Source of the DNA: Polaromonas sp.
GTDB taxonomy: Bacteria > Pseudomonadota > Gammaproteobacteria > Burkholderiales > Burkholderiaceae_C
Length of the DNA: 64,000 nucleotides
NCBI GenBank assembly: GCA_013297865.1
Contig: JAAFIP010000015.1
Coordinates: 31,359-95,358 of the forward strand
Direction: 5' to 3'
Shown one piece after another: positions 43,265 to 58,668 of this stretch. The notes beneath the pieces were generated by a model that was not told the origin of the DNA, did no database searches, and saw nothing but the letters and a program-made list of their open reading frames with translations. Positions within the stretch are counted from its first letter, which is position 1. Every line of letters starts with the position of its first letter. Made by a program: the position numbers and the translations under genes.

Positions 43265-44053
43265 TTAGAAACCATCAATTGGGGCATAGGCCAAGGGCAA
43301 AGCGGTTTTAGCGTCAATAAAAGCAACCCAATCTGCAGTTTTAAAGCTTGTTACTGGGATATAGAGCAAACTGCTTTCTGCAACGCCACTATCGATAACT
43401 GTTTGATCAATCAAGCGAGAGGCCTCTGGGCGTTTGGCACGCAAATTTGCAATAGATTTTGCACGACTCAAAACTTGATTTCGACTTAACTCGTAACTTT
43501 GCCACCAGTCTGGTCGTACTGCTTCGTCTTGGCCCTGAAACGCTAGATCCAAACTTTTCGCCCTTTCAAGGGGATCTTTGGCACTACGTACCCCAATTAA
43601 TTTGGGCCCAAATATCGGTAACTTATGGAAGCCGCCTAGTTCAGGTTTAAGTTGCCCCTCTGGAATATCTGCTCTAGACACCACTCTTAAGCGGTCAACT
43701 TCATGGACTAGGTAAACAGGGCGCGCTAAATATACGGTATACAGACCATAAACCAAAGCGGCCATCTGAATAACTGCCACTATGCCCAGATCTCGAATAA
43801 GCTCACCGCGTGGTTTGGCAGGATTAAACAAAACAAATGTAAGCAACGGGCCACACACCACGTCCACCGAGATAATCAGTACAAACAACTCTCTGCCACC
43901 CGATAACTCACGGTAAGGGTAGGGATACCAAACGCCAAATACCAATACACCTGCAAAAAAAGCTACCAGCAAGCTGAGAAAGAGATGCCAAGCTGCAGCT
44001 TTTAAAGAATACTTAAGGCGCGTATTGAATATATTACTGACCAACAACTGCAT
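43265..44053 (-). CDS. TfpX/TfpZ (FimB)-family type IV pilin accessory protein
   Basis: 'VFGVWYPYPYRELSGG...ISVDVVCGPLLTFVLFNPAKPRGEL...ALVYGLYTVYLARP' matches my memory of this membrane protein family, which is encoded downstream of group III-V pilins. GC is low, about 42%. Confidence 0.75.
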   Translation of the reverse strand: MQLLVSNIFNTRLKYSLKAAAWHLFLSLLVAFFAGVLVFGVWYPYPYRELSGGRELFVLIISVDVVCGPLLTFVLFNPAKPRGELIRDLGIVAVIQMAALVYGLYTVYLARPVYLVHEVDRLRVVSRADIPEGQLKPELGGFHKLPIFGPKLIGVRSAKDPLERAKSLDLAFQGQDEAVRPDWWQSYELSRNQVLSRAKSIANLRAKRPEASRLIDQTVIDSGVAESSLLYIPVTSFKTADWVAFIDAKTALPLAYAPIDGF

Positions 44054-44101: not shown

Positions 44102-44668
44102 TTAACGGCATTGTGCAGGCACGTACTTAGCTCGTACGGCAGTAGCACCTAATGCTGCAGGAATCACACCTGTACCAGCAAACTGAGCAGTAGCGGTTGC
44201 ATTTGTTTCAGAAACACATGCAAAGTCTATATCACCTGAAACTTGTGTTGCAGGTGTCAATGCAGTTAGCAGCGTCACAGCAGTTCCTGTTCCAGTGCGA
44301 ACGATCGGATGAATTTGAATCAGGCGCTCACCTGCTTTAATACCAACGCTAACGTCGTTGTACTGAATTGTCATGATACCGGTTGTAGTAGAACCTTGGA
44401 TGTTGTTAACGAACTTGCTGGTTGCACCAGTACCACCAGATTGGTTGTTAAAAGTTGTCATGGCTCCTGCCAAATCGGCAGCGGTAACCGCGCCGTAAGT
44501 AACTATGCCCTTCTTCAAAGGCTCAACCAAGCTCAAACCCTCAGTGATACGTGCGCGGATGGTGTAGTCTTGGTACGCGGGCAATGCAATAGCAGCCAAT
44601 ATACCAATAATCGCTACAACTATCATCAGTTCGATCAGGGTAAAGCCCTTTTGCAATAAACGTTTCAT
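44102..44668 (-). CDS. pilA: type IVa major pilin, paralog 2
   Basis: Class III signal '[35 protein letters not shown]' and a C-terminal Cys pair (disulfide loop). About 92% aa identity to paralog 1. Confidence 0.9.
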
Positions 44669-44688
44669 AATTAGCTCCAAGCAGTCAT

Positions 44689-44739: not shown

Positions 44740-45306
44740 TTAGCGGCATTGTGCAGGTACGTACTTGGCACGCACGGCAGTAGCGCCTAATGCTGCAGGG
44801 ATTACACCTGTACCAGCAAACTGAGCCGTAGCTGTAGCATTGGTTTCAGATACACATGCAAAGTCCACAGTACCCGATACTTGTGTTGCAGGTGTCAATG
44901 CAGTCTGCAAGGTCACAGCAGTACCTGTACCAGTGCGGACAATCGGATGAATTTGAATCAGGCGCTCAGCGGCTTTGATACCTACATTACCGTCGTTATA
45001 CTGAATCACCATAATACCGGTAGTAGTAGAACCTTGAATGTTGTTAACGAACTTGCTGGTTGCACCAGTACCACCAGATTGGTTGTTAAATGTTGTCATG
45101 GTTCCTGCCAAATCGGCAGCGGTAGAAGCGCCGTCCGTAGCTAAGGATTTCTTCAGAGGCTCAACCAAGCTCAAACCTTCAGTGATACGTGCACGGATGG
45201 TGTAGTCTTGATAAGCTGGCAGAGCAATAGCAGCCAAAATACCGATAATCGCCACAACGATCATCAATTCGATCAGGGTGAAACCCTTTTGCAGAGTACG
45301 CTTCAT
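44740..45306 (-). CDS. pilA: type IVa major pilin, paralog 1 (promoter-proximal)
   Basis: '[35 protein letters not shown]'; 188 aa; SD 'ctggaga'; sigma-54 promoter immediately upstream. Confidence 0.9.
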
Positions 45307-45344: not shown

Positions 45345-45361
45345 TTGCAAGTGGTGTGCCA
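45345..45361 (-). promoter_or_regulatory. sigma-54 (-24/-12) promoter of pilA paralog 1
   Basis: The minus strand reads TGGCAC-ACCAC-TTGCA, an exact match to the TGGCAC-N5-TTGCW consensus and spacing, 39 nt upstream of the ATG. Confidence 0.85.
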
Positions 45362-45554: not shown

Positions 45555-47987
45555 TTACTTCAGGCACACCGCTCGCACCTGTTTAAGGTCGGTCAGGCCC
45601 ATCAGAATCTTTTCCATGCCGTCCATCTTGAGGGTGCGCATGCCTTGGGCTACGGCCAGAGTGAATAGTTCGGCCACGCGGGCGCTCTCCTGGATGAGTT
45701 TTTTGATGGCGTCGTCGGCCACCAGCAGCTCGTGCAGGCCCACGCGACCTTTGTAGCCGGTGTGCTTACATTTGTCGCAGCCGCCCTGGCTGTTGACGCG
45801 GTAGAGCTTGAGGCTGCCGTCTTTGCCGTAGGCTTCGCTCCAGTGGTCCAGCAGGAGCTGCTGTTCGCCCCCGGGGTCGGCCTGCCAGGCAGCGGTGTGG
45901 CGCAGCTCGTCGGCATATTCGGTGATAAAGCTCTTGAGCTCGGTCGAAGTGGGCGTGTACTCTTCTTTGCAGTCGCACAGGCGCTTGGCCAGGCGTTGCG
46001 CCAGGATGCCCAGCAGCGCATCGGCAAAGTTGAACGGGTCCATGCCCATGTCCAGCAGCCGGGTGATGGACTCGGGCGCGCTGTTGGTGTGCAAGGTGCT
46101 GAACACCAGGTGGCCGGTGAGCGAGGCTTCCACACCCATGCTCACGGTTTCCTTGTCGCGGCTCTCGCCCACCATGATGATGTCGGGGTCGGCGCGCAGA
46201 AAGGCGCGCATGATCAGGGCAAAGTCAATACCGGCTTTTTTGTTGACCTGGACCTGACGCAGGCCCTTTTGGGTGATCTCCACCGGGTCTTCGGCCGTCC
46301 AGATCTTGGTGTCGGGCGTGTTGAGAAACTTGAGGATGCTATGCAATGTGGTGGTTTTGCCCGAACCGGTAGGGCCGCACACATAAAACAGGCCGTAGGG
46401 TTTGCTGACGGTTTTTTCCACACGCTCACGGTTGTGGGTGGTGAGGCCCAGTTTTTCCAGCGGGATAGGCTCGCCTGCGGCCAAAATGCGCATGACCACG
46501 TCTTCCACGCCGCCTGCGCTGGGGATGGTGGCCACGCGCAGCTCGATGTCCAGCGGGCCGTATTTTTTGAACTTGATCTTGCCGTCCTGCGGCTTGCGCC
46601 GCTCGGAGATGTCCAGGTCGCACATGATTTTCAGGCGAGTGACCATGGCCTGGCGAAAATGCGAAGGCACCTCGATATACGGTGCCAGCGTGCCGTCAAC
46701 GCGAAAGCGGATGCCGGTTTTGGCCTTGCCGGGCATGGGCTCGATGTGGATGTCCGAGGCCTTCTGGTGGTAGGCGTCCACAATGACCTTGTTGACAAAC
46801 TTTACCAGCTCGTTGTCGGCCGCGGCTGACTCGAGAGCCGAATCGTCAAAGCCAGAGTCGTCCAGCGGCGCGTTCATGTCGGCCAGTAGCTGGTCGATAG
46901 AGCCGCTGTCGTTGCCTGCGCCAAACAGCTGGCCCAGGGTTTCTTCAAACTCCGCATGGGTGGTGACGCGGTAGCTGACTTTGGACAGGCGCGGGAACAG
47001 CTGCTGCACCATGCGCGCGCCGCGCGTGGCCTCAGGGTCCAGGCACATCACCACCAGGCCTTCGGAGGTTTCTTCCAGCGGGATCCAGCCTTGCTGGTGG
47101 ATGAAGTCCACCTTCAGCGCAGCGTGCAGCATCTCCGAGCGGATGCGCCCGTTGCTAAATGGCTCATACGGCACACCAAAAAACTGCGCAAGCGACGGGC
47201 CGATCTGCGCGGGCTTGATGTGGTGGTCGGCCATCAGCATATGCTCCACCGACTGGCCCTGCTCGCGAGCCTTGCGCACACACTGCGCCAGCGCTTCGGC
47301 AGACAGCATCTCCTGGCTCACCAGCAAATCGTATTTGGTGGCTTTGCGCCGCTGGCTGTCTTCGGCGCGCTGCGCGCGCTGGCGGATGGCGGTGGCCAGG
47401 GTTTTGCACAGCTGGGTGGCGCCTTCAATCTCCAGCATACCAAATGGCGCATTGCTTTTGTTGTTGATCACCTGCAGCACACCATGCAGCTGCTGGCCGT
47501 CCACAATCGGCACCACCAGCATCTGCTTGGTGCGGTAGCCCGAGCGCTTGTCCACCTCTTTGAGAAAACTCAGCTGGGGATGGATGCGCTTGAGGCTCTC
47601 GTCGTCATACACATCGGCAATATTGACCATATCGCGCGACATGGCGGCATAGCCCGCAATGCTCTGCACGCCAATGGGCAGCTTGAGGTCTTTGGCCACC
47701 TGCAGGCCGGTTTTGACCTTGGAGATGATCGAGCTTTTGTCTTCGCTTACAGCGTACAGCGTGAGCCGGTCTGCATTGAGCAGCTTGCAGATGTCCTGGC
47801 TGGACTCCAGCATCAGCTGGTCAATGTTCTCGGTGTCGTGGATGCGGGTGGTGACCTGCTGTAGCTGGCGGTAAAACAGTACCTCAAAGGTGACGCCGCG
47901 TTTTTCAGGGGGCAGCAGCTGGGAGTTGAAAAACGCCTGTTCAGCGCTGGCATGCGCATGGCTCGACGGCGAAAACCCGGAGCTCAT
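45555..47987 (-). CDS. GAF domain-fused PilB/GspE-family (T2SSE) hexameric ATPase
   Basis: - 810 aa in total.
- N-terminal GAF-like region (about aa 40-200).
- T2SSE_N-like region (about aa 220-360).
- ATPase core: Walker A 'GPTGSGKTT', Asp box 'TAEDPVEI', Walker B 'DIIMVGESRD', His box 'GHLVFSTLHTN'.
- Zinc motif 'CDC...CDKC'. Confidence 0.9.
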   Translation of the reverse strand: MSSGFSPSSHAHASAEQAFFNSQLLPPEKRGVTFEVLFYRQLQQVTTRIHDTENIDQLMLESSQDICKLLNADRLTLYAVSEDKSSIISKVKTGLQVAKDLKLPIGVQSIAGYAAMSRDMVNIADVYDDESLKRIHPQLSFLKEVDKRSGYRTKQMLVVPIVDGQQLHGVLQVINNKSNAPFGMLEIEGATQLCKTLATAIRQRAQRAEDSQRRKATKYDLLVSQEMLSAEALAQCVRKAREQGQSVEHMLMADHHIKPAQIGPSLAQFFGVPYEPFSNGRIRSEMLHAALKVDFIHQQGWIPLEETSEGLVVMCLDPEATRGARMVQQLFPRLSKVSYRVTTHAEFEETLGQLFGAGNDSGSIDQLLADMNAPLDDSGFDDSALESAAADNELVKFVNKVIVDAYHQKASDIHIEPMPGKAKTGIRFRVDGTLAPYIEVPSHFRQAMVTRLKIMCDLDISERRKPQDGKIKFKKYGPLDIELRVATIPSAGGVEDVVMRILAAGEPIPLEKLGLTTHNRERVEKTVSKPYGLFYVCGPTGSGKTTTLHSILKFLNTPDTKIWTAEDPVEITQKGLRQVQVNKKAGIDFALIMRAFLRADPDIIMVGESRDKETVSMGVEASLTGHLVFSTLHTNSAPESITRLLDMGMDPFNFADALLGILAQRLAKRLCDCKEEYTPTSTELKSFITEYADELRHTAAWQADPGGEQQLLLDHWSEAYGKDGSLKLYRVNSQGGCDKCKHTGYKGRVGLHELLVADDAIKKLIQESARVAELFTLAVAQGMRTLKMDGMEKILMGLTDLKQVRAVCLK

Positions 47988-48775
47988 AGGTCAAATACTT
48001 GCCCCGCCCGCAGCCAGCGGATGTCATGGCTCACATGGGGGCCAGAGGGATGGGTCTGGTCAAAGCGTTGCACCTCTTCCATGATCAGGTCGGTCTCAGC
48101 TGGCTTGGTATGGGTGATGTAAATCGGAAAGTGCTTGTCCTGGGCGATCTGGTCCAGCTCGTCTGCCAGTGCGGTGGGCGAGAGGTGCAGGCTGCGTTTG
48201 GCCAGCTCCTGCTCACGGTTGCTGAAAGCGGTTTCTATCACTAGCATCGCCACGTTCATGGAGTTCAGACGCTGCCAGAAGGCGGCGTTGCGCTCGGTAT
48301 CGCCAGTAAACACCCAGCTGCTTCGGCCTGCATGCACCGCGTAGCCCACCGCAGGCACGGTGTGCACTGCTGGCATCACCTCGACGGTTTTGCCTGCGAT
48401 TTGCAGGATTTGGCCGGTATGGATCGGGTGAAAACTCAAAAACGGCGCTTCGGCCGACGGAATTTGGCTGAAGTCGGGCCAGATGGCGTTATTGAAAATA
48501 TGCTGGCGCAGGGCGGCAATCGTCTCGGGCAGGGCATGCACGCGCAAAGGCGCGCTGCGCTGGGCTGCGACCGAGTCGATCATCAGCGGCAACGAGGCGA
48601 TATGGTCCAGATGCGAATGGGTCAGCAGCACATCGTTGATCTGGCACATCTCATCCAGACGGAGGTCGCCCACGCCCGTGCCTGCGTCCACCAGCAGGTC
48701 GGCATCAATCAGGAAGGAGGTGGTACGGCAGTCCTTGGCAATCGCGCCAGAGCATCCTAAAACCCGTACTTTCAT
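47984..48775 (-). CDS. class II 3',5'-cyclic-nucleotide phosphodiesterase (MBL fold)
   Basis: 'MKVRVLGCSG' and 'LLTHSHLDHIASLPL' match the start of the class II PDE signature H-x-H-L-D-H-[LIVM]-x-[GS]. The stop overlaps the ATPase start (ATGA). The start is at 48775, or possibly 48802. Confidence 0.8.
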   Translation of the reverse strand: MKVRVLGCSGAIAKDCRTTSFLIDADLLVDAGTGVGDLRLDEMCQINDVLLTHSHLDHIASLPLMIDSVAAQRSAPLRVHALPETIAALRQHIFNNAIWPDFSQIPSAEAPFLSFHPIHTGQILQIAGKTVEVMPAVHTVPAVGYAVHAGRSSWVFTGDTERNAAFWQRLNSMNVAMLVIETAFSNREQELAKRSLHLSPTALADELDQIAQDKHFPIYITHTKPAETDLIMEEVQRFDQTHPSGPHVSHDIRWLRAGQVFDL

Positions 48776-48812
48776 TGTGCAAAATTCCCCAAAGACATAC
48801 ATCGCCTATGCA

Positions 48813-51062
48813 TTATTTAGTATCAAAATTGGTTGCGCCGTCCCACGCGGGATCAATAGGCAACATACGCATAGAGGCTACACGCTCTGAGTACAGTTGG
48901 TAAAGGTATTTTTTGGCATTTACGCGCTGCAAATTAAGTATTTGTACATCGCATTGCTCCCAGTCCTGGTTTCTGTAGGCCTTAAGTAAGCCATTCCAGA
49001 TTTTCAGCTCGTCGGCCTGATCTTTGCCCAGATGGTCAGCGCTGGCCACGGGCATGAAGATGGAAACGGCCTGTTCCTTGCCCTTGACGCGCACTTTGTC
49101 CAGCTCCTGCCAGGCAAAATCAGGCGCCAGCCTGCGGGTGGACTCACTCACCACAATCTCCACGCCATAGTTTTTGGACAGTCCTTCCAGCCGCGAGCCC
49201 AGGTTGACGGCGTCGCCAATGACGGTATAGCTTTTGCGGATCGACGAGCCCATGTCGCCTACGCACATATTGCCCGTGTTCAGGCCAATGCCGATGCCGA
49301 TGGCGGGCAAGCCCTTGGCCTCGTGCTCGGCATTGAGGGTGCGCACGGCCTGCGCCATCTCGATGGCGGTTTTTACCGCCAGCGAGGCGTGCTGTGGCGA
49401 GTCCACTGGCGCGCCCCAAAACGCCATCACGCAGTCGCCCATGTATTTGTCGATGGTGCCCCGATTGGCGCGGATCAGGTCGGTCAGGCGGCTGAAGACA
49501 GTGTTCAGCAGGGCCTGCAGCTGGGTGGGCTCCATGTTCTCAGACAGCTTGGTAAAGCCGCGCATGTCACAGAACATGACGGTCAGCTCCTTGCTGGCGG
49601 CCTTCATGTTGTAACTGTCGGGGTCTTTGACCATTTCATCGACCAGCTCGGGCGGCACATAGGTGCCAAACAGGTTGGCGATCTGGCGCTTGGATTTGCT
49701 CTCGACAAAATAGCCGTAACTCATGTTGAGCGCAAAGGCCGTCAGCGACATGATCAACGCCGCAGCCAGGGGCAACACCAGACCATAGCCCAGGTACATC
49801 CAGAAATTCAGGCCCACTACTGCGCCGATTACCAGCAAGCTCAGCGCGACAGCCTTGGGCGCAGACAGCATCGGCAGCGCAATGGCCAGAATCAGGCCGG
49901 CGAGCACCAGCACCACCACCTCAAAACCAATGGCGTAATCAGGCCGCACAGGCACACGGCCATCAAGCAGGCCAGAGATCATGTTGGCATGCACCTCTAC
50001 CCCCGGGTAGGTCTCGCCCACGGGGGTGACGCGCAGGTCCAGCAGGCCGGGGGCTGTGGTGCCCAGCAGCACGATCCGGTCTTTGAGCGCACCCGCAGGC
50101 ACCCGCTGCATCACCACATCCGAGGCAGAGTAGTATTTGAAGGAGCCGCCAGTCGTGTTGCCCGGGCCCCGAAACGGGATCAAAGCGGAGACTTTGTCAT
50201 CCACCGGAATGGCCAGGCTCTTGCCGTCCTGGCGCAGCAAAATGCTCTCCAGTCCCTGGTAATTGCGTGCCAGAAAGCGCTCTTGTGGAAAGCCCGGCTC
50301 GATTTTGGGCAAACCGGTGAGCATGCGGAAAATGCCCAGCGACAGAGATTCGTAATACTGCCCCTTGTGCTCCGCCACCAGCGGGATGGATCGCACCACA
50401 CCGTCGAGGTCAGTAATGGAGTTGAAAAACCCGGCCATGGGCGCTGCTTTGGCCAGGGACTCAATATTGGAGCCAAAGCCCGACCAACTGGTGAATTTGA
50501 TGGGCTTGCCTTGCAATGCGTCACGCTGCATCACGGGGGCAGGCAGCGCGCCGCTGGTGCGGCCATCGCGGTCACTGGTGAAGTAGTAGCCCATCACTAC
50601 GGCGCGTTTATCTAGAGACTTGGCAAATGCGGCGTCGTAGTCCAGGCTGTTTTCAATCTGTCCCAGACGCTCGGCAAACCCGGCCTGGTCCTTGAGCTCG
50701 TTGCTGGCCAGCTGGCGCAGGCGCTTGAGACCCGAGCTCTCGTCGGCTTCCGCAAACACCACGTCAAAACCCAAAATGGCGATTTTCTGGCGCTCGAACA
50801 GCTCATCCACCAGGGTGGCCATTTTGTTGCGGCCCCAGGGCCAGCGGCCGACTTCGGCCAGGCTTTTCTCGTCAATGTCGATGATCGCAATGCGCTCATC
50901 CAGGGTCTTGGGCATGGTCGCGCTCAGGCGCGAGTCGTAGATGATGTCATCCAGACGCTGGAAGACATTGATGGGCAACATGCCGCTGGCGTGCAGCAAG
51001 GCAATGACTAGGGGGATAAGTGTGACGGCGATGCGGCGCCAATGTTTCAGCAGCACCTGCAT
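48813..51062 (-). CDS. CHASE2 sensor-linked class III adenylate/guanylate cyclase
   Basis: N-terminal CHASE2 region ('IAIIDIDEKSLAEVGRWPWGR'), then 3-4 TM helices, then the cyclase domain 'VMFCDMRGFT...DKYMGDCVMAFWGAP...GDAVNLGSRLE' with both metal Asp residues and the Asn/Arg pair present. Confidence 0.9.
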   Translation of the reverse strand: MQVLLKHWRRIAVTLIPLVIALLHASGMLPINVFQRLDDIIYDSRLSATMPKTLDERIAIIDIDEKSLAEVGRWPWGRNKMATLVDELFERQKIAILGFDVVFAEADESSGLKRLRQLASNELKDQAGFAERLGQIENSLDYDAAFAKSLDKRAVVMGYYFTSDRDGRTSGALPAPVMQRDALQGKPIKFTSWSGFGSNIESLAKAAPMAGFFNSITDLDGVVRSIPLVAEHKGQYYESLSLGIFRMLTGLPKIEPGFPQERFLARNYQGLESILLRQDGKSLAIPVDDKVSALIPFRGPGNTTGGSFKYYSASDVVMQRVPAGALKDRIVLLGTTAPGLLDLRVTPVGETYPGVEVHANMISGLLDGRVPVRPDYAIGFEVVVLVLAGLILAIALPMLSAPKAVALSLLVIGAVVGLNFWMYLGYGLVLPLAAALIMSLTAFALNMSYGYFVESKSKRQIANLFGTYVPPELVDEMVKDPDSYNMKAASKELTVMFCDMRGFTKLSENMEPTQLQALLNTVFSRLTDLIRANRGTIDKYMGDCVMAFWGAPVDSPQHASLAVKTAIEMAQAVRTLNAEHEAKGLPAIGIGIGLNTGNMCVGDMGSSIRKSYTVIGDAVNLGSRLEGLSKNYGVEIVVSESTRRLAPDFAWQELDKVRVKGKEQAVSIFMPVASADHLGKDQADELKIWNGLLKAYRNQDWEQCDVQILNLQRVNAKKYLYQLYSERVASMRMLPIDPAWDGATNFDTK

Positions 51063-51156: not shown

Positions 51157-51798
51157 TCAGCCTTGGACAAACTGCATCTGAGTGCCAGCAAGCTCGAGAA
51201 CATCCATGTCTTTAAGTGTGACAGGCTCCGCGCCAATAGGCGCACCGTTGAGCGTGGGCTTGTTGGAGCCTTCCACATGGGCCACCACAAAGCCATGGGG
51301 GCGCTTGGTAATGGCAGCAACGGCCACACCGGGCTTGCCAATCGTAGTGACTACCTTGACCAGAGGCACTTCGCGGCCGGCAGCGGCACCTGAGAGCACC
51401 TTGATGGCCGCATTGACCGAAGGCGCAGCAGCAGCACTGGCCGCAGGCGGCATGGCGACACCGGCAGAACCGGGTTTGACGACCATCGTCTGCTCAAAAC
51501 TCGCATTGGCCGCTTCGTTGACAAATTTGATCTTATATTTGCCGATTTCAACAGTATCGTTGTTTGCCAACAACTGTTTTTTGGCAGCTTTGCCGTTGAC
51601 ATAGGTGCCATTGGTGCTGTTGAGGTCTTCCAGGTACACCTCATTGCCCGTCATCTGCATGACGGCGTGCTCGCCACTGACGGCCAGATTGTCGATGACA
51701 ATGTCGTTGTAAGGACGCCGTCCCAGGGTGGTACGGTCCTTCGTTAGCTGGACTTCCTTGATGACGACACCGTCGATCGATACGATCATTTTCGGCAT
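51157..51798 (-). CDS. FHA domain protein (N-terminal FHA plus second beta-rich domain)
   Basis: 'TTLGRRPYNDIVIDNLAVSGEHAVM...LNSTNGTYVNG' carries the FHA signature residues G-R, S-x-x-H and N-G; 213 aa. Confidence 0.85.
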   Translation of the reverse strand: MPKMIVSIDGVVIKEVQLTKDRTTLGRRPYNDIVIDNLAVSGEHAVMQMTGNEVYLEDLNSTNGTYVNGKAAKKQLLANNDTVEIGKYKIKFVNEAANASFEQTMVVKPGSAGVAMPPAASAAAAPSVNAAIKVLSGAAAGREVPLVKVVTTIGKPGVAVAAITKRPHGFVVAHVEGSNKPTLNGAPIGAEPVTLKDMDVLELAGTQMQFVQG

Positions 51799-51832: not shown

Positions 51833-52618
51833 CTACTTTCTCAGTAAGCGCGACATCAAGCCACGCTTGTTTGAGCCTTCTTTGGCCTGCATCAGCAGCA
51901 CCGTAATATTATCCCTGCCACCAGCCTCATTGGCCGCTGCAATCAAGGTATTGCACTTTTGCTCCAGCGTCTCATCGTTACGCAAGATCTGTGCAATGCC
52001 GTCGTCGTCCACCATGTCAGACAGGCCATCAGAACACATCAAGTACAGATCGCCAACCTCCACGCGGTGCTCATTGACTTCCAGCAACACCGTGTCTTCC
52101 ACGCCCAGTGCGCGGGTGACCAGGTTTTTGTTCAGCGATGTAGCAGCCTGCTCAGGAGTGATTAAGCCTGCATCAAGCTGTTCCTGCAAGAGCGAATGGT
52201 CCCTGGTGATCTGGCTGAACTCCTCGCCACGCAGGCGATAGCAGCGCGAATCGCCAATATGGCCGAGCATCAGGCGTGCTTCGTGGCACACCCCCACCAC
52301 CAGCGTGGTGCCCATGCCGGCGTACTGCGGATTGGAGTTGGCAGCATTGAAGATCGAACGATTGGCGTTGTCCACGCAGATTTCCAGCGCGCGGCGCACT
52401 TCGCGGGCATTGGCGGTTTTGCCCACCTGCGACAGCCAGCGGCTGAGTTCGGAGCGGATAAACGCGGTGGCCATGCCACTGGCGACTTCGCCAGCGTTAT
52501 AGCCGCCCATGCCATCGGCTAGGACGGCCAGCTGGGTGGGTGCATCAAAAGTGACCGAATCCTCGTTGTTGTCTCGCGCGAGTCCGGGGTCGGTATGGGT
52601 ACAAAATTGGTAAATCAT
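51833..52618 (-). CDS. PP2C-family Ser/Thr protein phosphatase
   Basis: 'RDNNEDS', 'LADGMGG', 'CSDGLSD' and 'GGRDNITVLL' are PPM motifs; 261 aa. Confidence 0.9.
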   Translation of the reverse strand: MIYQFCTHTDPGLARDNNEDSVTFDAPTQLAVLADGMGGYNAGEVASGMATAFIRSELSRWLSQVGKTANAREVRRALEICVDNANRSIFNAANSNPQYAGMGTTLVVGVCHEARLMLGHIGDSRCYRLRGEEFSQITRDHSLLQEQLDAGLITPEQAATSLNKNLVTRALGVEDTVLLEVNEHRVEVGDLYLMCSDGLSDMVDDDGIAQILRNDETLEQKCNTLIAAANEAGGRDNITVLLMQAKEGSNKRGLMSRLLRK

Positions 52619-52647: not shown

Positions 52648-55386
52648 TTAGCTATGAGTCCCCGAATTGGGAGGGGGCGCGACTATGGTTTTCTCGAACT
52701 TTGAAGGCTCAGGCGTGAATTTTTGCGTTGCAGCAAAACCATCTGGACTGGTTTTGGACACTGCTGGCGCGCTCATGATACGGGTGGGCTCTTCTGCGTC
52801 TGCGCTGGCGACAACAGGACGCGGGCTGGCTACTGTCTGGGGCTGGGTATCGCCCACACCCATCTCGGCGATGGCCAGGCGCAGATCGCTGGCCAGTTGC
52901 TCGCCATCCTGGTAGCGCGTCTCAGGGCGTTTGCTCAGTGCGCGCATCACCACATGGGCTACTCGCTCGCTCAGGTCGGCTCGGATGGCGCGTACATCGG
53001 GGGCTTCTTCGTTGGCGATTTTGTACATCAGCTCAGCCATTGAGTCACCACGGAACGGCAGCACGCCAGCAAGCATCTGGAAAAGCATCACGCCCAGGGA
53101 ATACAGGTCTGAGCGCCCGTCGACTTTTTTGCCCGCAATCTGCTCGGGTGACATGAAGCTGGGGGTGCCCAGCACCAGACCGGTTTTGGTTTTGCTGGAG
53201 TCGGTAATGCGTGCAATGCCAAAGTCGGTCACCTTGACCGTGTCGCTGTCCAGCTCATACATGATGTTGGCAGGCTTGATGTCACGGTGCACCACATTCT
53301 GGCGGTGTGCATAAGCCAGCGCCTGCGCCACGCGCTCCACAATCGACAGCACCTTGGCCACCGGCAGCAAACTGCCTTGTTTGCAGAAATCCACCAGGTC
53401 TTTGCCTTTGAGAAACTCCATGGCGATGTAGGCCAGATCATGCTCTTCGCCCGCATCAAAAATCGTCACGATGTTCTGGTGCTGCAGGCGCCCTGCGGTT
53501 TCTGCCTCGCGGAAGAAGCGCTCACGCGCATCAATCAGCTCATCCCCATCGAACTCCTGCGACAAGGCCATGGTCTTGATAGCCACAACGCGGCCAATCT
53601 TGGGGTCCTTGCCCAGATAGACCACCCCCATCGCGCCCTTGCCCAGTTCTTTTTCGACCTGGTAACGGCCCAGCATGGGTTTCTCCACGCCGCCGCCGTC
53701 CAGTAGCATGGTGCCGCCAGGGTGCGCGCCTGTGCCACCGAGGATGACGGTTTCCGAGAGGTTTTTGGCACGGCTGAGTTTGGCATCCAGCCCTTTGTAG
53801 CTGCGGTCCAGCCCGGCCATGTGCTCATACACCGCCTGGGCCTTGTTGAACTGGCGCTTGCGCTCAAAATCCAGCGCCAGATTGCCCAGGTTACCCATCA
53901 GGGCGTCACTCACCGGCACGCGGCGAAAACGGTCAAATGCCATGTCCAGCTGGCCTTGGCCCTGCAACGCCAGGCCCATCATGCGGTTGGTCTCGGCAGA
54001 CTCCTCATCGCTTTTAACTTTGCCTGCTTCGGTGAACAGGAAACGTTTGGTGGTCAGCGCCAGGTGGCCGATCACCAGCAGCATGGCGGGAAACACCAGC
54101 TTGAGCCACTTGCTGTTTTGCGAGAGCAGCACATATTCAGCGATCAAAAACAGCGCGAACACTGCGCCCGTCATGACCGCGCCCTGGCCTGCAGACAGGC
54201 GCGGCAGCAGCACAATCAGATAGGCCATGGTCAACAGCACGGCCAGACCGGAGGTGATGTAAGCCCATGAGGGCGTGCTGACGAAGTGCTCAGACAGAAT
54301 GCCCGAGGTGACATGGGCCGTGAGCTCTACCGGGGTCATGGAGCGGCCCAGCGGCGTGGGAAACTCCACACCCAAACCTGCTGCGGTAGGGCCGAGCAGC
54401 ACGATTTTGTTGGCGTATTTGCTGGCTTGTACTTTGCCAGACAGCACATCAAAGGCAGAGTCGGTGGCAAATGCGGTCTTGCCATCGCGGTCGGCGTAGA
54501 AGAAGGGGCGCATCAAGGCCGCGCCGCCTTCGTCAGTACCAATGCGCAGCTTGCCCAGCTGAATTTCAAACGGATTGTCGTTCACACGGATGTCAGCCGG
54601 GCCCAGATTGAGACTGCGGGCTGCCGCCAAAAGCGCTATCGAGGGAACAAGCTGGCCGTAGTAGTTGGTAAGCAAAGGCTCGCTGCGTATCGCGCCGTCA
54701 ATATCTGCCACCTTGCTGGCATGCCCGATGCCAATGGCCTTGCTGCCCAAAATCTCCAGCGGCTCCAAAATACCGGCCGCCTCTACGCCCAGCAGTGTGG
54801 CAGGCGCGGCAACCAGGCTTTTGGTGGTGCCCGGGCTCAGGGGTTTGTCTGGCTTGCCACGGGCTTCACCCGGCGTGAAAGACGCCGCCAGAATGACCTT
54901 GTTGGATGCCGCAATCGACTGCGCCAGTTTGGCGTCACTGTTGAGTGCTTCTTCACCCTCGGTGGCGATCTTGTTGACCGCCTCCAGCGTGGAGTTGCTG
55001 GCCGAGGGGTCGATGGCCAGCGCCTCGCGGATCTTGCGCAGATAGGGCAAGCCGCGCTCCATCTGCGGCTCAAAATAGAACACGGTGTTGACGATGGACT
55101 TGGGTGCGCCGGAGTTGATTTTGTCGATCAGCTGGGCCTGCACATCGCGCGACCAGGGCCAGCGACCGATATTGGCAATGCTTTGGTCATCAATGGCGAT
55201 GATGGCGATCTGGTCAGAAGGCTTTTTGTTGGCCGCGCTGAGGGATACGTCGTAGAAGCGGTTTTCAAACGTATCTACAAAGTTGGTACTTTTGTAGAGC
55301 AGCAGTACGCCAAGCACCACCAGGACGCCCACAAACCAGTCGGAGCGCCAGAATTGGCTACGTTTTGAAGAAGATCCTGTCCCCAC
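52648..55386 (-). CDS. CHASE2 sensor-linked Hanks-type Ser/Thr protein kinase
   Basis: - N-terminal CHASE2 region ('IAIIAIDDQSIANIGRWPWSR').
- TM cluster followed by a helical linker.
- Kinase domain with 'GKGAMGVVY', 'VAIKTM', 'HRDIKPANI', 'DFGIA' and 'GTPSFMSPE'.
- Pro/Ser-rich tail.
- 912 aa in total. Confidence 0.9.
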   Translation of the reverse strand: MGTGSSSKRSQFWRSDWFVGVLVVLGVLLLYKSTNFVDTFENRFYDVSLSAANKKPSDQIAIIAIDDQSIANIGRWPWSRDVQAQLIDKINSGAPKSIVNTVFYFEPQMERGLPYLRKIREALAIDPSASNSTLEAVNKIATEGEEALNSDAKLAQSIAASNKVILAASFTPGEARGKPDKPLSPGTTKSLVAAPATLLGVEAAGILEPLEILGSKAIGIGHASKVADIDGAIRSEPLLTNYYGQLVPSIALLAAARSLNLGPADIRVNDNPFEIQLGKLRIGTDEGGAALMRPFFYADRDGKTAFATDSAFDVLSGKVQASKYANKIVLLGPTAAGLGVEFPTPLGRSMTPVELTAHVTSGILSEHFVSTPSWAYITSGLAVLLTMAYLIVLLPRLSAGQGAVMTGAVFALFLIAEYVLLSQNSKWLKLVFPAMLLVIGHLALTTKRFLFTEAGKVKSDEESAETNRMMGLALQGQGQLDMAFDRFRRVPVSDALMGNLGNLALDFERKRQFNKAQAVYEHMAGLDRSYKGLDAKLSRAKNLSETVILGGTGAHPGGTMLLDGGGVEKPMLGRYQVEKELGKGAMGVVYLGKDPKIGRVVAIKTMALSQEFDGDELIDARERFFREAETAGRLQHQNIVTIFDAGEEHDLAYIAMEFLKGKDLVDFCKQGSLLPVAKVLSIVERVAQALAYAHRQNVVHRDIKPANIMYELDSDTVKVTDFGIARITDSSKTKTGLVLGTPSFMSPEQIAGKKVDGRSDLYSLGVMLFQMLAGVLPFRGDSMAELMYKIANEEAPDVRAIRADLSERVAHVVMRALSKRPETRYQDGEQLASDLRLAIAEMGVGDTQPQTVASPRPVVASADAEEPTRIMSAPAVSKTSPDGFAATQKFTPEPSKFEKTIVAPPPNSGTHS

Positions 55387-56483: not shown

Positions 56484-57377
56484 CTAGAGCATCGCCTTCA
56501 GCAGCTTGGCCATCTCGGACGGGTTGCGTGTGACTTTAAAGCCGCACTCTTCCATCACCGCCAGCTTGGCGTCTGCCGTGTCAGCGCCGCCGCTGATCAG
56601 CGCGCCGGCATGGCCCATGCGCTTGCCTGCGGGGGCGGTAACGCCCGCGATAAAGCCGACGATGGGCTTTTTCATGTTGGCTTTGCACCAGCGGGCAGCG
56701 TCTGCCTCGTCCGGGCCGCCGATCTCGCCAATCATGATGACAGCGTCGGTGTCCGGGTCGTCGTTGAAGGCCTTCATCACGTCGATGTGCTTCAGACCGT
56801 TGATCGGGTCGCCACCGATGCCCACTGCGCTGGACTGGCCCAGGCCGATTTCGGTCAGCTGCGCCACGGCTTCGTAGGTGAGCGTGCCTGAGCGCGAGAC
56901 CACGCCAATGCGGCCCTTGCGGTGGATGTGGCCGGGCATGATGCCAATCTTGATTTCATCTGGTGTGATCAGGCCCGGGCAGTTGGGGCCCAGCAGCAAG
57001 GTGCGCTTGCCGCCAGCGGCTTCTTTGGCCTTCATGCGGTTGCGCACTTCCAGCATGTCACGCACGGGGATGCCCTCGGTGATGCAAATCGCCAGGTCCA
57101 GGTCGGCTTCGACAGCTTCCCAGATGGCCGCGGCAGCGCCTGCGGGCGGCACATAGATCACGCTGACCGTAGCGCCGGTGGTGGCAGCAGCTTCTTTGAC
57201 CGATGCGTAGATCGGGATGTTGAAAATCGACTCGCCCGCCTTCTTGGGGTTTACGCCCGCGACGAAGCAGTTTTTGCCGTTGGCGTATTCCTGGCACTTC
57301 TCGGTGTGAAACTGGCCGGTCTTGCCGGTGATGCCTTGGGTGATGACTTTGGTGTTTTTGTTGATGTAAATACTCAT
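56484..57377 (-). CDS. sucD: succinyl-CoA synthetase alpha subunit
   Basis: 'MSIYINKNTKVITQGITGKTGQFH', 'SRSGTLTYE' and 'MGHAGA'; 297 aa. Confidence 0.95.
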   Translation of the reverse strand: MSIYINKNTKVITQGITGKTGQFHTEKCQEYANGKNCFVAGVNPKKAGESIFNIPIYASVKEAAATTGATVSVIYVPPAGAAAAIWEAVEADLDLAICITEGIPVRDMLEVRNRMKAKEAAGGKRTLLLGPNCPGLITPDEIKIGIMPGHIHRKGRIGVVSRSGTLTYEAVAQLTEIGLGQSSAVGIGGDPINGLKHIDVMKAFNDDPDTDAVIMIGEIGGPDEADAARWCKANMKKPIVGFIAGVTAPAGKRMGHAGALISGGADTADAKLAVMEECGFKVTRNPSEMAKLLKAML

Positions 57378-57504
57378 GATGGATCCTTGTCAAAACGCGA
57401 TGGAGGATGCGTGCCTTTTCAAGCGGCCACCTCGGAACCGGCTCTGCCGGGCCGATGGTGGCGCCCCCTGGAGGGGGAGGCGCCGCAGGCGCATCGGGGG
57501 TGGG

Positions 57505-58668
57505 TCATTTAGCTACAGCGGCGACGACTTTCTGGGCCGCCTCAGCCATGCTGTCAGCACTGATGATGGGCAGGCCAGAGTCCTTGAGCATTTGTTTGCC
57601 CAGCTCTTCGTTGGTGCCTTTCATGCGCACGACCAGGGGCACGCTCAGGTTGGTGGCTTTACAGGCAGTGATGATGCCGGTGGCAATGGTGTCGCACTTC
57701 ATGATGCCGCCAAAGATGTTGACCATGATGGCCTTGACCTTGGGGTTTTTCAGCATGATCTTGAAAGCTTCGGTCACTTTCTCGGGTGTAGCGCCACCGC
57801 CGACATCCAGGAAGTTGGCAGGCTCTGCGCCATACAGCTTGATGGTGTCCATGGTGGCCATGGCCAGGCCTGCGCCGTTGACCAGGCAGCCGATGTTGCC
57901 GTCCAGCGAAATGTAGGCCAGGTCGAATTTGGAGGCTTCGATCTCGGCCGGGTCTTCTTCGTCCAGGTCGCGCAGGGCAACGATTTCGGGGTGGCGGAAC
58001 AGCGCGTTGCTGTCAAAGTTGAACTTGGCGTCCAGCGCCTTGATGCCGCCATTGCCTTCCAGGATCAGCGGGTTGATCTCGACCAGTGCTGCGTCGGTAT
58101 CCATATAGCACTTGTAGAGCTTTTGCAGCACGTCCACGCAGGCAGCGGTGGAGGCGGCGGGCACGGTCATGCCGTCGGAGAGCGTTTTGCCCTGCTCGGC
58201 GGTCAGGCCGATGGCGGGGTCTACAAACACGGTGATGATTTTCTCGGGCGTGTCGTGCGCCACGGCTTCAATGTCCATGCCGCCTTCGCTGCTGGCCATG
58301 AACACCACTTTCTGCGTAGCGCGGTCGGTCACTACGGAGACATAGAGTTCTTTTTTGATGTCGGCGCCATCTTCGATGAACAGGCGGCGCACTTTTTGGC
58401 CTTCAGGGCCGGTTTGCACGGTTTTGAGCTGCATGCCCAAAATCTCACCGGAGAGCTTTTTGACATCATCAATGCTGCGAGCCAGCTTGACGCCGCCGCC
58501 CTTGCCGCGGCCACCCGCGTGGATCTGTGCCTTGACCACCCAGACTGGGCCGCCCAGCTTCTGTGCGGCTTCCACCGCTTCTTGCACGGTGAATGCAGGG
58601 ATGCCGCGCGGGACGGGAATGCCAAAAGAGCGCAAGATGTCCTTGCCTTGGTACTCATGGATTTTCAT
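57505..58668 (-). CDS. sucC: succinyl-CoA synthetase beta subunit
   Basis: '[22 protein letters not shown]', '[18 protein letters not shown]' and '[18 protein letters not shown]'; 387 aa. Confidence 0.95.

Follow-up and report, generated by a model that had tools for sequence, protein, structure and literature searches.

A candidate local cAMP circuit encoded with a GAF-bearing accessory type IV pilus-type ATPase in Polaromonas sp.

In the Pil-Chp surface sensing of Pseudomonas aeruginosa (CyaB/CpdA/Vfr), a membrane cyclase and a phosphodiesterase (PDE) set a level of cyclic AMP (cAMP) that is tied to type IV pili, and cAMP acts on pili through transcription factors. To our knowledge, second-messenger control of pilus motors has so far been known for cyclic di-GMP (c-di-GMP), through MshEN and FimX-PilZ. 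The MshEN c-di-GMP motif of the PilB/MshE/PilF extension ATPases, described in work on the MshEN domain of Vibrio cholerae MshE, is a tandem of the 24-residue sequence RLGxx(L/V/I)(L/V/I)xxG(L/V/I)(L/V/I)xxxxLxxxLxxQ, for which a strict and a relaxed pattern were given (PMC5013675). Here, we describe an operon within 64,000 nucleotides of DNA from Polaromonas sp. (assembly GCA_013297865.1, contig JAAFIP010000015.1, positions 31,359 to 95,358 of the forward strand; this whole stretch is called the window below), in which a CHASE2-class III cyclase and a metallo-beta-lactamase (MBL)-fold PDE are encoded directly before a PilB/GspE-family ATPase with an N-terminal GAF domain. Like the c-di-GMP-gated motors, this ATPase belongs to the PilB/GspE family of hexameric motors, has a predicted N-terminal second-messenger sensor before the N1 domain and is linked to type IV pilus genes. 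Unlike the MshE-type motors, it is without the MshEN motif, has a cAMP-type GAF domain and has its putative writer and eraser in the same operon. On the reading proposed below, the wiring would be a variant of the second-messenger control of PilB-type motors in which a cAMP-type GAF replaces the c-di-GMP motif. Taken singly, the parts belong to ordinary families that are annotated routinely, and the new element is the wiring of a cAMP writer and eraser to a GAF-bearing pilus-type motor. No published description of a GAF-PilB or MshEN+GAF+T2SSE architecture, or of a CHASE2-cyclase-FHA-pili cassette, was found in the literature.

The genes of the row all lie on the minus strand, in the order kinase, PP2C phosphatase, FHA protein, cyclase, PDE and GAF-ATPase, followed by the pilins, TfpZ and a PglL-like gene. 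The central part of the operon consists of the CHASE2-class IIIb cyclase (48813-51062, 749 aa, with one plus three predicted transmembrane (TM) segments), the MBL-fold, class II-like cyclic nucleoside monophosphate (cNMP) PDE (47984-48775, 263 aa) and the ATPase (45555-47987, 810 aa), in which a GAF domain is followed by T2SSE_N (MshEN-like) and the PilB/GspE-family ATPase domain (Pfam: T2SSE 374, GAF 44 and MshEN 31 bits). These genes had been singled out in an earlier note, made by reading the sequence alone, and the coordinates and strings quoted there are all present and correct by open reading frame (ORF) and domain reading. Every check on the sequences and models that might have overturned the note's interpretation turned out in favour of it.

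There is an even chance, in our judgement, that the operon encodes a local cAMP circuit gating an accessory type IV pilus motor. In such a circuit, the extracytoplasmic CHASE2 domain of the writer would control a cytoplasmic, homodimeric class IIIb domain that converts ATP to 3',5'-cAMP, while the eraser, the cytoplasmic 263-aa MBL-fold PDE, would hydrolyse cAMP to 5'-AMP. Translational coupling would tie the amount of the eraser to that of the reader. As the reader, the N-terminal GAF domain of the ATPase, which has lost the c-di-GMP motif, would bind cAMP, and this binding would alter the activity or the assembly of an accessory type IVa extension-type motor beside sigma-54 pilin genes. A second input may come from the upstream trio of CHASE2-kinase, PP2C and FHA protein, which would feed a phospho-threonine signal to the same output. 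The operon encodes no Vfr/CRP, in contrast to the system with Vfr, and since the candidate reader is a GAF domain fused to the motor, control would be post-translational at the motor, not transcriptional. A bolder form of this proposal, in which GAF-bound cAMP directly switches the motor on or off, the coupled PDE is a co-dosed local sink and the ATPase would be the first cAMP-gated, not c-di-GMP-gated, pilus motor, falls somewhat short of an even chance.

The ATPase has the Walker A and Walker B motifs, the Asp and His boxes and the four-Cys motif, and it scores 468.5 bits with the NCBIfam PilB model (TIGR02538), which is below the equivalog cut-off of 675.65. Other ATPases are encoded in the same genome, where the canonical pilB lies beside pilC on a different contig and where there are also a gspE-gspF pair and one more PilB-like gene, the third; the platform genes adjoin these other ATPases, on contigs C2 and C25, and no pilC lies beside the window ATPase. 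Because the canonical pilB-pilC lies elsewhere in the genome, the window ATPase is taken to be an accessory PilB-family paralogue without its own platform gene. The MshEN motif, whether in its strict form or in the relaxed form of its authors, is absent from the window ATPase and from 80 orthologues (81 sequences), and c-di-GMP control through MshEN is ruled out by this absence.

The GAF domain (residues ~40-205, 47373-47870, minus strand) was compared with solved structures by phmmer. By far the best match is with the tandem GAF of Anabaena CyaB2 in its cAMP-bound form (1YKD, E value 1.3e-25), followed by 4MCW, an HD-GYP phosphohydrolase with no bound cNMP (1.6e-10), by PDE10A (1.5e-7) and PDE2A (1.8e-6), and then by PDE6 and PDE5. 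In GAF-B of CyaB2, cAMP is contacted by R291 (at N1), T293 (at N6/N7), I308, T309, D356 and N359 (PMC4411481). With the CyaB2 numbering (offset 57) fixed by R-S-T, I-T and D-Q-Q-N in the 1YKD row of the alignment, the equivalents in the window are R74, T76, V91, K92, D146 and S149, respectively; over the contacts R291, T293, I308, D356 and N359, three are identical and two are conservative. The predicted cAMP-type pocket is formed by R74, T76, V91, D146 and the strand G150-Y-R-T153. Its string reads ADRLT, compared with ADRTT, ADRST and ADRCA in cAMP binders and AEICS in the cGMP-binding GAF-B of PDE2A. The pocket residues are conserved in 66 orthologues; among them, R74, T76 and D146 are (near-)invariant and also persist in GAF-ATPases from other classes of the phylum at ~40% identity. 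With the GAFs of Anabaena CyaB2 and CyaB1 and GAF-B of PDE10A, the window GAF shares ADRxT, a hydrophobic residue at the position of I308, D356, the GYRT strand and the N, K and F of the NKFDE motif. It differs from the CyaB2-type GAFs in being single, not tandem, and in having a secretion-type AAA+ motor as its output, not a cyclase or a PDE. The AlphaFold2 model of the domain has a predicted local distance difference test (pLDDT) score of 87 and a regular GAF fold. The 'GAF-bearing effector' of the earlier note is borne out as having, by sequence, a cNMP-type GAF whose best solved relative is CyaB2 and whose pocket reads 'ADRxT', not 'AEICS'.

The PDE and ATPase genes meet at a junction where the PDE stop codon had been said to overlap the ATPase ATG. 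The junction reads ...GAC CTA TGA GCT..., with the PDE TGA at 47986-47984 and the ATPase ATG at 47987-47985, and the ATGA read in the sequence (47984-47987, minus strand) is a putative translational coupling site. This overlap is kept in 39 of the 39 Comamonadaceae-type loci, which are all those with the PDE directly before the ATPase. In every one of them the tetranucleotide that ends the PDE is NTGA and includes a start-type codon, where N is A in 30, G in eight, T in one and C in none. ATGA needs a last sense codon that ends in A, which in the window is CTA (Leu); such a codon would be rare at ~60% G+C and would point to selection for the overlapping start. No good Shine-Dalgarno sequence lies within 5-10 nt of the ATPase ATG, the nearest purine-rich run being 15-18 nt upstream. 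Because of the overlap and the lack of a good Shine-Dalgarno sequence, translation of the ATPase is probably the work of ribosomes coming straight from the end of the PDE, and the overlap together with the distance of the purine run would fit termination-reinitiation. The Rhodocyclales-like clade is different, with either 77-214 nt or a cNMP-binding gene between PDE and ATPase.

A PDE homologue (E value <= 1e-10) was found in 194 of the 301 genomes that were sampled from the order, and 88 of the 143 genera have one. For the gene order, 40 PDE loci from ~35 families were chosen among the best-placed homologues, as far as possible with a single locus for each family, and they are therefore a non-random sample. 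The GAF-ATPase is just downstream in 29 of these loci, the CHASE2 cyclase is just upstream in 23, and PP2C/FHA genes occur in 33. An extra gene stands after the PDE in seven loci (in six of them between the PDE and the ATPase), and a further gene stands after the ATPase in 26. The extra gene encodes a protein of 350-365 aa with cNMP_binding and rhodanese domains (Pfam), two cNMP_binding stretches and an intact FGE...RNAT phosphate-binding cassette; it is found in the Rhodocyclales-like loci L054 (8748-9845) and L079 (8779-9819) and in 20 others. The gene after the ATPase combines GAF with HD/HD_5 of the HD-GYP type (Pfam) and occurs in L079 (12375-14072) and in 51 other loci, including most of the non-Comamonadaceae ones; in the ATPase-less loci L112 and L115 it directly follows the PDE. 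A homologue of the cNMP_binding/rhodanese protein is absent from the window's genome, as is one of the GAF-HD-GYP protein. From this survey, the PDE, usually with the cyclase, typically precedes one to three cNMP-type sensor proteins, and this is the strongest contextual support for a local circuit. Among the described sensors, Tlr0485, a GAF-HD-GYP c-di-GMP PDE, and Lcd1, a GAF-GGDEF protein, are cAMP-activated (PMC8846402). Both are switched by cAMP via a GAF at the N terminus. In sister lineages of the operon, the gene after the ATPase is of the GAF-HD-GYP type; in contrast to Tlr0485, the only GAF effector in the window's operon is the pilus-type ATPase.

The gene order was also followed from the side of the ATPase. 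Scanning a single genome of each species gave 80 loci, from Polaromonas, Ramlibacter, Rhodoferax, Curvibacter, Rhodocyclaceae, Azonexaceae, Sterolibacteriaceae and Nitrosomonadales. The row kinase-PP2C-FHA-cyclase-PDE-ATPase is found in ~52 of the 70 loci with visible context (tblastn with the window proteins); the others comprise 15 without cyclase and PDE, two to four with the PDE only and one with the cyclase only. The order (kinase)-PP2C-FHA-cyclase-PDE-ATPase holds in most of 120 loci from ~35 families. A cyclase and a PDE set immediately before a GAF effector had been proposed in the earlier note as a local signalling circuit; the adjacency recurs too often to be due to chance, as these counts show, but the circuit is not closed, and its parts occur separately. 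In the ATPase tree, the window is sister to a Polaromonas metagenome-assembled genome (MAG; 87% identity), and the complete arrangement is found in both deep clades. All loci with neither cyclase nor PDE fall within the Rhodoferax clade and need at least three losses. There are 11-12 loci with PDE and ATPase and without the cyclase, and the readers are therefore linked more closely with the PDE than with the cyclase, and the modules can be lost singly.

Several side observations were made on the ATPase and its GAF. Loci L121-L132, from other classes of the phylum, encode GAF-fused PilB-like ATPases of 740-800 aa with ~40% identity, mostly without the cassette. A convergent CHASE2-cyclase stands beside the GAF-ATPase in L122, and several of the L121-L132 loci have a second GAF gene that reads 'NADAGT' in place of 'ADRxT'. 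In genome G074, whose cassette is without the ATPase, a stand-alone frame of 191 aa (contig C20:195825-196331) is 45% identical to the ATPase GAF.

Several observations weigh against a local circuit that is read out by the ATPase. The NKFDE motif of the GAF is partial, since N175, K176 and F182 are present and D-E is replaced by E186-I-E188 (E-x-E). At the level of the fold, the GAFs of PtsP and of HD-GYP proteins rank alongside the cNMP binders, so the fold alone cannot name the ligand. The window's own genome encodes seven class III cyclases and 10 CAP-type cNMP-binding proteins, and cAMP is therefore not private to the operon unless it is kept local. Fifteen Rhodoferax-type loci have an unchanged GAF pocket and no local cyclase or PDE, from which it follows that the ATPase does not need the pair. 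Relocation of the PDE was considered for five of these 'neither' genomes and rejected, as they have no PDE orthologue anywhere, only ~31%-identical MBL matches. Degeneration of the GAF pocket along with the loss of cyclase and PDE was likewise rejected, because no GAF column differs between 51 sequences with both genes and 15 with none. In the opposite direction, the row kinase-PP2C-FHA-(cyclase)-PDE stands directly before pilins/TfpZ in three complete genomes of the same family (L106 in G058, L107 in G197 and L094 in G109) and in one other. No GAF-ATPase is present anywhere in G197, G058, G109 or G175, which also rejects its relocation in these relatives, and the pair must have other targets in such genomes.

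On these grounds, a different reading has to be considered, according to which the pair makes and degrades cAMP but the main readers are elsewhere. They would be CAP/CRP-type or other cNMP-binding proteins that control pilin or pilus expression, as in CyaB-Vfr, and the GAF would be a dimerisation module or would bind another ligand. The persistence of the cyclase-PDE pair beside pilins in L094, L106 and L107, the persistence of GAF-ATPases without the pair, the 10 CAP-type domains and a fold search that cannot separate the GAF from PtsP-type GAFs all speak for it, as does the CAP-type cNMP-binding/rhodanese gene in the operon of sister lineages. We nevertheless consider it unlikely, because the GAF sequence is far nearer to cAMP-bound CyaB2 (E value 1e-25) than to the next solved GAF (1e-10), the adenine-contact Arg, Thr and Asp are strongly conserved, the operon encodes no transcription factor and the overlap of PDE stop and ATPase start is kept throughout the 39 loci described above.

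The eraser of the proposed circuit is, on the evidence of its sequence and model, a predicted class II-like cNMP phosphodiesterase of the MBL fold. The start of the class II PDE signature, HSHLDHIAS, had been noticed before and is present in the PDE ORF (47984-48802, minus strand), and the Pfam model PDEase_II (PF02112) matches with 51.4 bits, above its cut-off of 23.7. The start of the protein is most likely the second ATG, at 48775, which gives 263 aa beginning MKVRVLGCSG. Nearly all close Comamonadaceae-type homologues are of this length and begin in this way, the Rhodocyclales-like ones have 254-256 aa, and a database entry identical to the 263-aa protein exists (P0001). A GGGGA lies 11-15 nt 5' of the ATG at 48775, while the first ATG (48802; 272 aa, the longest ORF) has only AGG at -5, and this alternative start was judged less likely from the homologue lengths and the ribosome-site spacing. 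With the start at 48775, the spacer between cyclase and PDE is 37 nt, not 10.

The residues H53, H55, D57, H58, H138, D159 and H222 (263-aa numbering), which make up a full binuclear metal site, are invariant in sets of 59 and 39 sequences, and N95, W99 and P100 are likewise invariant across the 59 homologues. If the PROSITE class II signature is taken as H-x-H-L-D-H-[LIVM]-x-[GS]-[LIVMA]-[LIVM](2)-x-S-[AP], HSHLDHIASLPLMID fits its first nine to ten positions only and departs from it by a P at position 11 and by having no S-[AP]. The only significant sequence matches in the PDB are yeast PDE1 (4OJV, E value 4.8e-9) and BA1088 (1ZKP). An AlphaFold2 model built on 39 sequences reached a pLDDT of 92.6, and in Foldseek its top match is again yeast PDE1 (4ojv, E value 5.5e-16, TMq 0.79), followed by YhfI, BA1088, the anti-Pycsar cNMP hydrolase Apyc1 and then RNase Z. 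The window PDE thus has the binuclear MBL site in common with yeast PDE1 and with YhfI/Apyc1, its top fold matches, and the stretch HxHLDH...FNxxIWPD in common with PDE1, from which it differs in being ~100 aa shorter. It scores 32 bits against the cut-off of 400 of the NCBIfam Apyc1-type model. By hydropathy, no TM segment, signal peptide or hydrophobic segment was found in the PDE, which is for this reason predicted to be cytoplasmic; CpdP of Vibrio fischeri is periplasmic. The eraser also differs from P. aeruginosa CpdA, which is a class III enzyme, and PdeM (PMC4320098) was set aside as a comparison because it is a class III PDE and irrelevant here.

The possibility that the MBL gene encodes a nuclease of the RNase Z/BN kind, or a diesterase whose substrate is 2',3'-cNMP, a cyclic dinucleotide or a phosphonate ester, which would leave the cyclase without a dedicated eraser here, seems to us improbable. 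The names of the homologues are divided, being 3',5'-cyclic-nucleotide phosphodiesterase at NCBI and, at JGI, 'ribonuclease BN' in most cases or 'cAMP phosphodiesterase'. The best NCBIfam matches, all sub-threshold, are RNase Z models, and the folds of RNase Z, PhnP and arylsulfatase come close behind in Foldseek, those of the RNase Z type being only ~3 orders of magnitude weaker than PDE1. The PDEase_II match is partial, as it is limited to residues 54-144 and to profile positions 82-175 of 340, ~a third of the model, and Lactamase_B_2 (Pfam, 56 bits) is the model that spans the entire protein. Against a nuclease, the PDEase_II score is twice the curated cut-off, and the class II-specific FNxxIWPD after HxHLDH, common with yeast PDE1, does not vary within the family. 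In the fold search, PDE1 comes first and the cNMP-degrading YhfI/Apyc1 group next. The protein is ~40 aa shorter than RNase Z (NCBIfam models of 302-307 positions), and its match to these models is confined to the first ~150 residues; the tRNA-binding arm of RNase Z would not fit the MBL protein. The gene is, moreover, nearly always located between the cyclase and GAF or CAP-type readers.

For the writer, a class IIIb adenylate cyclase with cAMP as the expected product is predicted from the sequence. The CHASE2 extracytoplasmic sensor domain (residues 20-391, 49890-51005, minus strand) matches PF05226 with 184 bits (E value 5.6e-54) and has hydrophobic segments on either side. TM-like segments at residues 11-29 and 378-448 correspond by hydropathy to one N-terminal segment and ~three after CHASE2, and since they flank CHASE2, this domain is placed outside and the catalytic domain inside. 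The catalytic domain (residues 490-666, 49065-49595, minus strand; Guanylate_cyc PF00211, 94.9 bits against a cut-off of 21.9) contains FCDMRGFT (D499), IDKYMGDCVM (K539, D543) and KSYTVIGDAVNLGSRLE (T613, N620, R624). Its best matches in the PDB by phmmer are the engineered Cya2 chimera 6FHT, P. aeruginosa CyaB (3R5G, E value 2.8e-31), OaPAC and bPAC. CyaB is thus the closest natural solved adenylate cyclase and has the same Lys/Thr, Asp/Asp and Asn/Arg set; the sensor is CHASE2 here and MASE2 there.

In the alignment with 3R5G, K539 falls on the K of 'gtidkfvgdcvm' and T613 on the T of 'mdytiigrevnlasrle'. D499 and D543 align with the metal-binding Asp residues, and N620 and R624 with 'vnlasrle' of the solved cyclases. 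The columns that specify the substrate hold Lys/Thr in CyaB, bPAC, OaPAC and the window, and Glu/Gly in the guanylate cyclase Cya2 (2W01). K539 stands four residues before D543 and T613 seven residues before N620, and this spacing (K-4-D, T-7-N-4-R) agrees with the numbering of Rv1625c. All six residues, D499, K539, D543, T613, N620 and R624, are invariant across 51 orthologues of 44-81% identity. Both the metal-binding Asp residues and the Asn/Arg transition-state pair, and also the Lys/Thr pair of class IIIb adenylate cyclases, had been read from the letters alone; alignment with the solved class IIIb adenylate cyclase CyaB and with the photoactivated cyclases upholds each of them, as does the invariance in the orthologues. 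The metal Asp pair and the transition-state Asn/Arg on a single chain make a homodimer-competent cyclase, and as the Lys/Thr assignment holds, the product is expected to be cAMP. Dual specificity is known among class II PDEs, yeast PDE1 being an example, and cGMP is made by some bacterial class III cyclases whose residues are atypical. That the cyclase here makes cGMP or another cNMP, which the GAF and the PDE would read and erase, is nonetheless highly improbable, even though the isolated GAF-B of CyaB2 binds cGMP too (PMC4411481), because the Lys/Thr pair is invariant and is that of the proven adenylate cyclases CyaB, bPAC and OaPAC, not the Glu/Gly of Cya2, and because the GAF has the Arg that hydrogen-bonds adenine N1 in CyaB2 and is absent from the cGMP-specific GAF-B of PDE2A.

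If the local cAMP circuit proposed here is true, a motor that itself reads cAMP and shares its operon with the writer and the eraser would give envelope signals, sensed through CHASE2, a new and fast way to surface behaviour. In the bolder form of the proposal, the system would also be a hard-wired bacterial cAMP microdomain combined with a phospho-threonine input from kinase, PP2C and FHA protein. The cassette is found in a large share of the Burkholderiales-type Betaproteobacteria, and the GAF-ATPases extend to other classes. It would offer a compact, genetically tractable system for the question of how bacteria keep cAMP signals local, and a testable physiological context for the poorly studied bacterial class II-like PDEs and for the CHASE2 domain.

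The genes upstream of the cyclase would provide the second input of the circuit. The first gene of the operon encodes a CHASE2-sensor Hanks-type Ser/Thr kinase (52648-55386, minus strand; Pfam Pkinase 188 bits, CHASE2 165 bits) and is followed by a PP2C Ser/Thr phosphatase (51833-52618, minus strand; NCBIfam Stp1_PP2C_phos 255 bits, above its cut-off) and an FHA-domain protein (51157-51798, minus strand; Pfam FHA 79 bits), which is syntenic in most loci. The successive gaps from the kinase to the ATPase are 29, 34, 94, 10 or 37 and -4 nt. In the threonine-phosphorylation pathway of the P. aeruginosa H1 type VI secretion system (H1-T6SS), the kinase PpkA, the PP2C phosphatase PppA and Fha1 act together. 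As there, a trio of Hanks kinase, PP2C and FHA protein is encoded with, and presumably gates, an envelope-spanning machine; in contrast to H1-T6SS, the trio in the window goes with a type IV pilus-type motor, its kinase has CHASE2 as the sensor and a cAMP module is interposed.

Downstream of the ATPase lie two type IV pilin paralogues (44740-45306 and 44102-44680, minus strand; Pfam N_methyl/Pilin) and the accessory gene TfpZ (43265-44053, minus strand; NCBIfam TfpZ 215 bits). The position of the pilins and TfpZ beside the operon indicates the machine that the operon serves. A sigma-54-type promoter, TGGCAC-N5-TTGCA (45346-45361, minus strand), was read in the sequence ~40 nt 5' of the first pilin ATG; because this exact -24/-12 element precedes the first pilin, the pilins are considered to have their own promoter, separate from the signalling operon. 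Intrinsic terminators between the operon genes were rejected, since no terminator-like hairpin lies in any intergenic spacer of the gene row and the counts are equal to, and no higher than, the shuffled expectation.

A few further observations concern the surroundings of the operon and its relatives. Upstream of the operon region are sucD and sucC of succinyl-CoA synthetase (56484-58668, minus strand), with a 127-nt spacer, which are unrelated to the finding. On contig C7 of the window's own genome (18919-20189), ~11 kb 5' of the window start, a second class III cyclase is encoded in an open frame of 1144 aa, and a CAP-type cNMP-binding protein of 221 aa adjoins it, as a possible further cAMP pair on the same contig. 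The same genome encodes, at the extreme end of contig C24 (292155-292754), a paralogue that is 45% identical over 206 aa to the FHA protein of the operon. The MAG records of loci L053, L058 and L064, labelled Synechococcus, Mycobacteriaceae and Bordetella parapertussis, carry the betaproteobacterial cassette and, in the ATPase tree, nest in betaproteobacterial clades, and are probably mis-binned or mislabelled.

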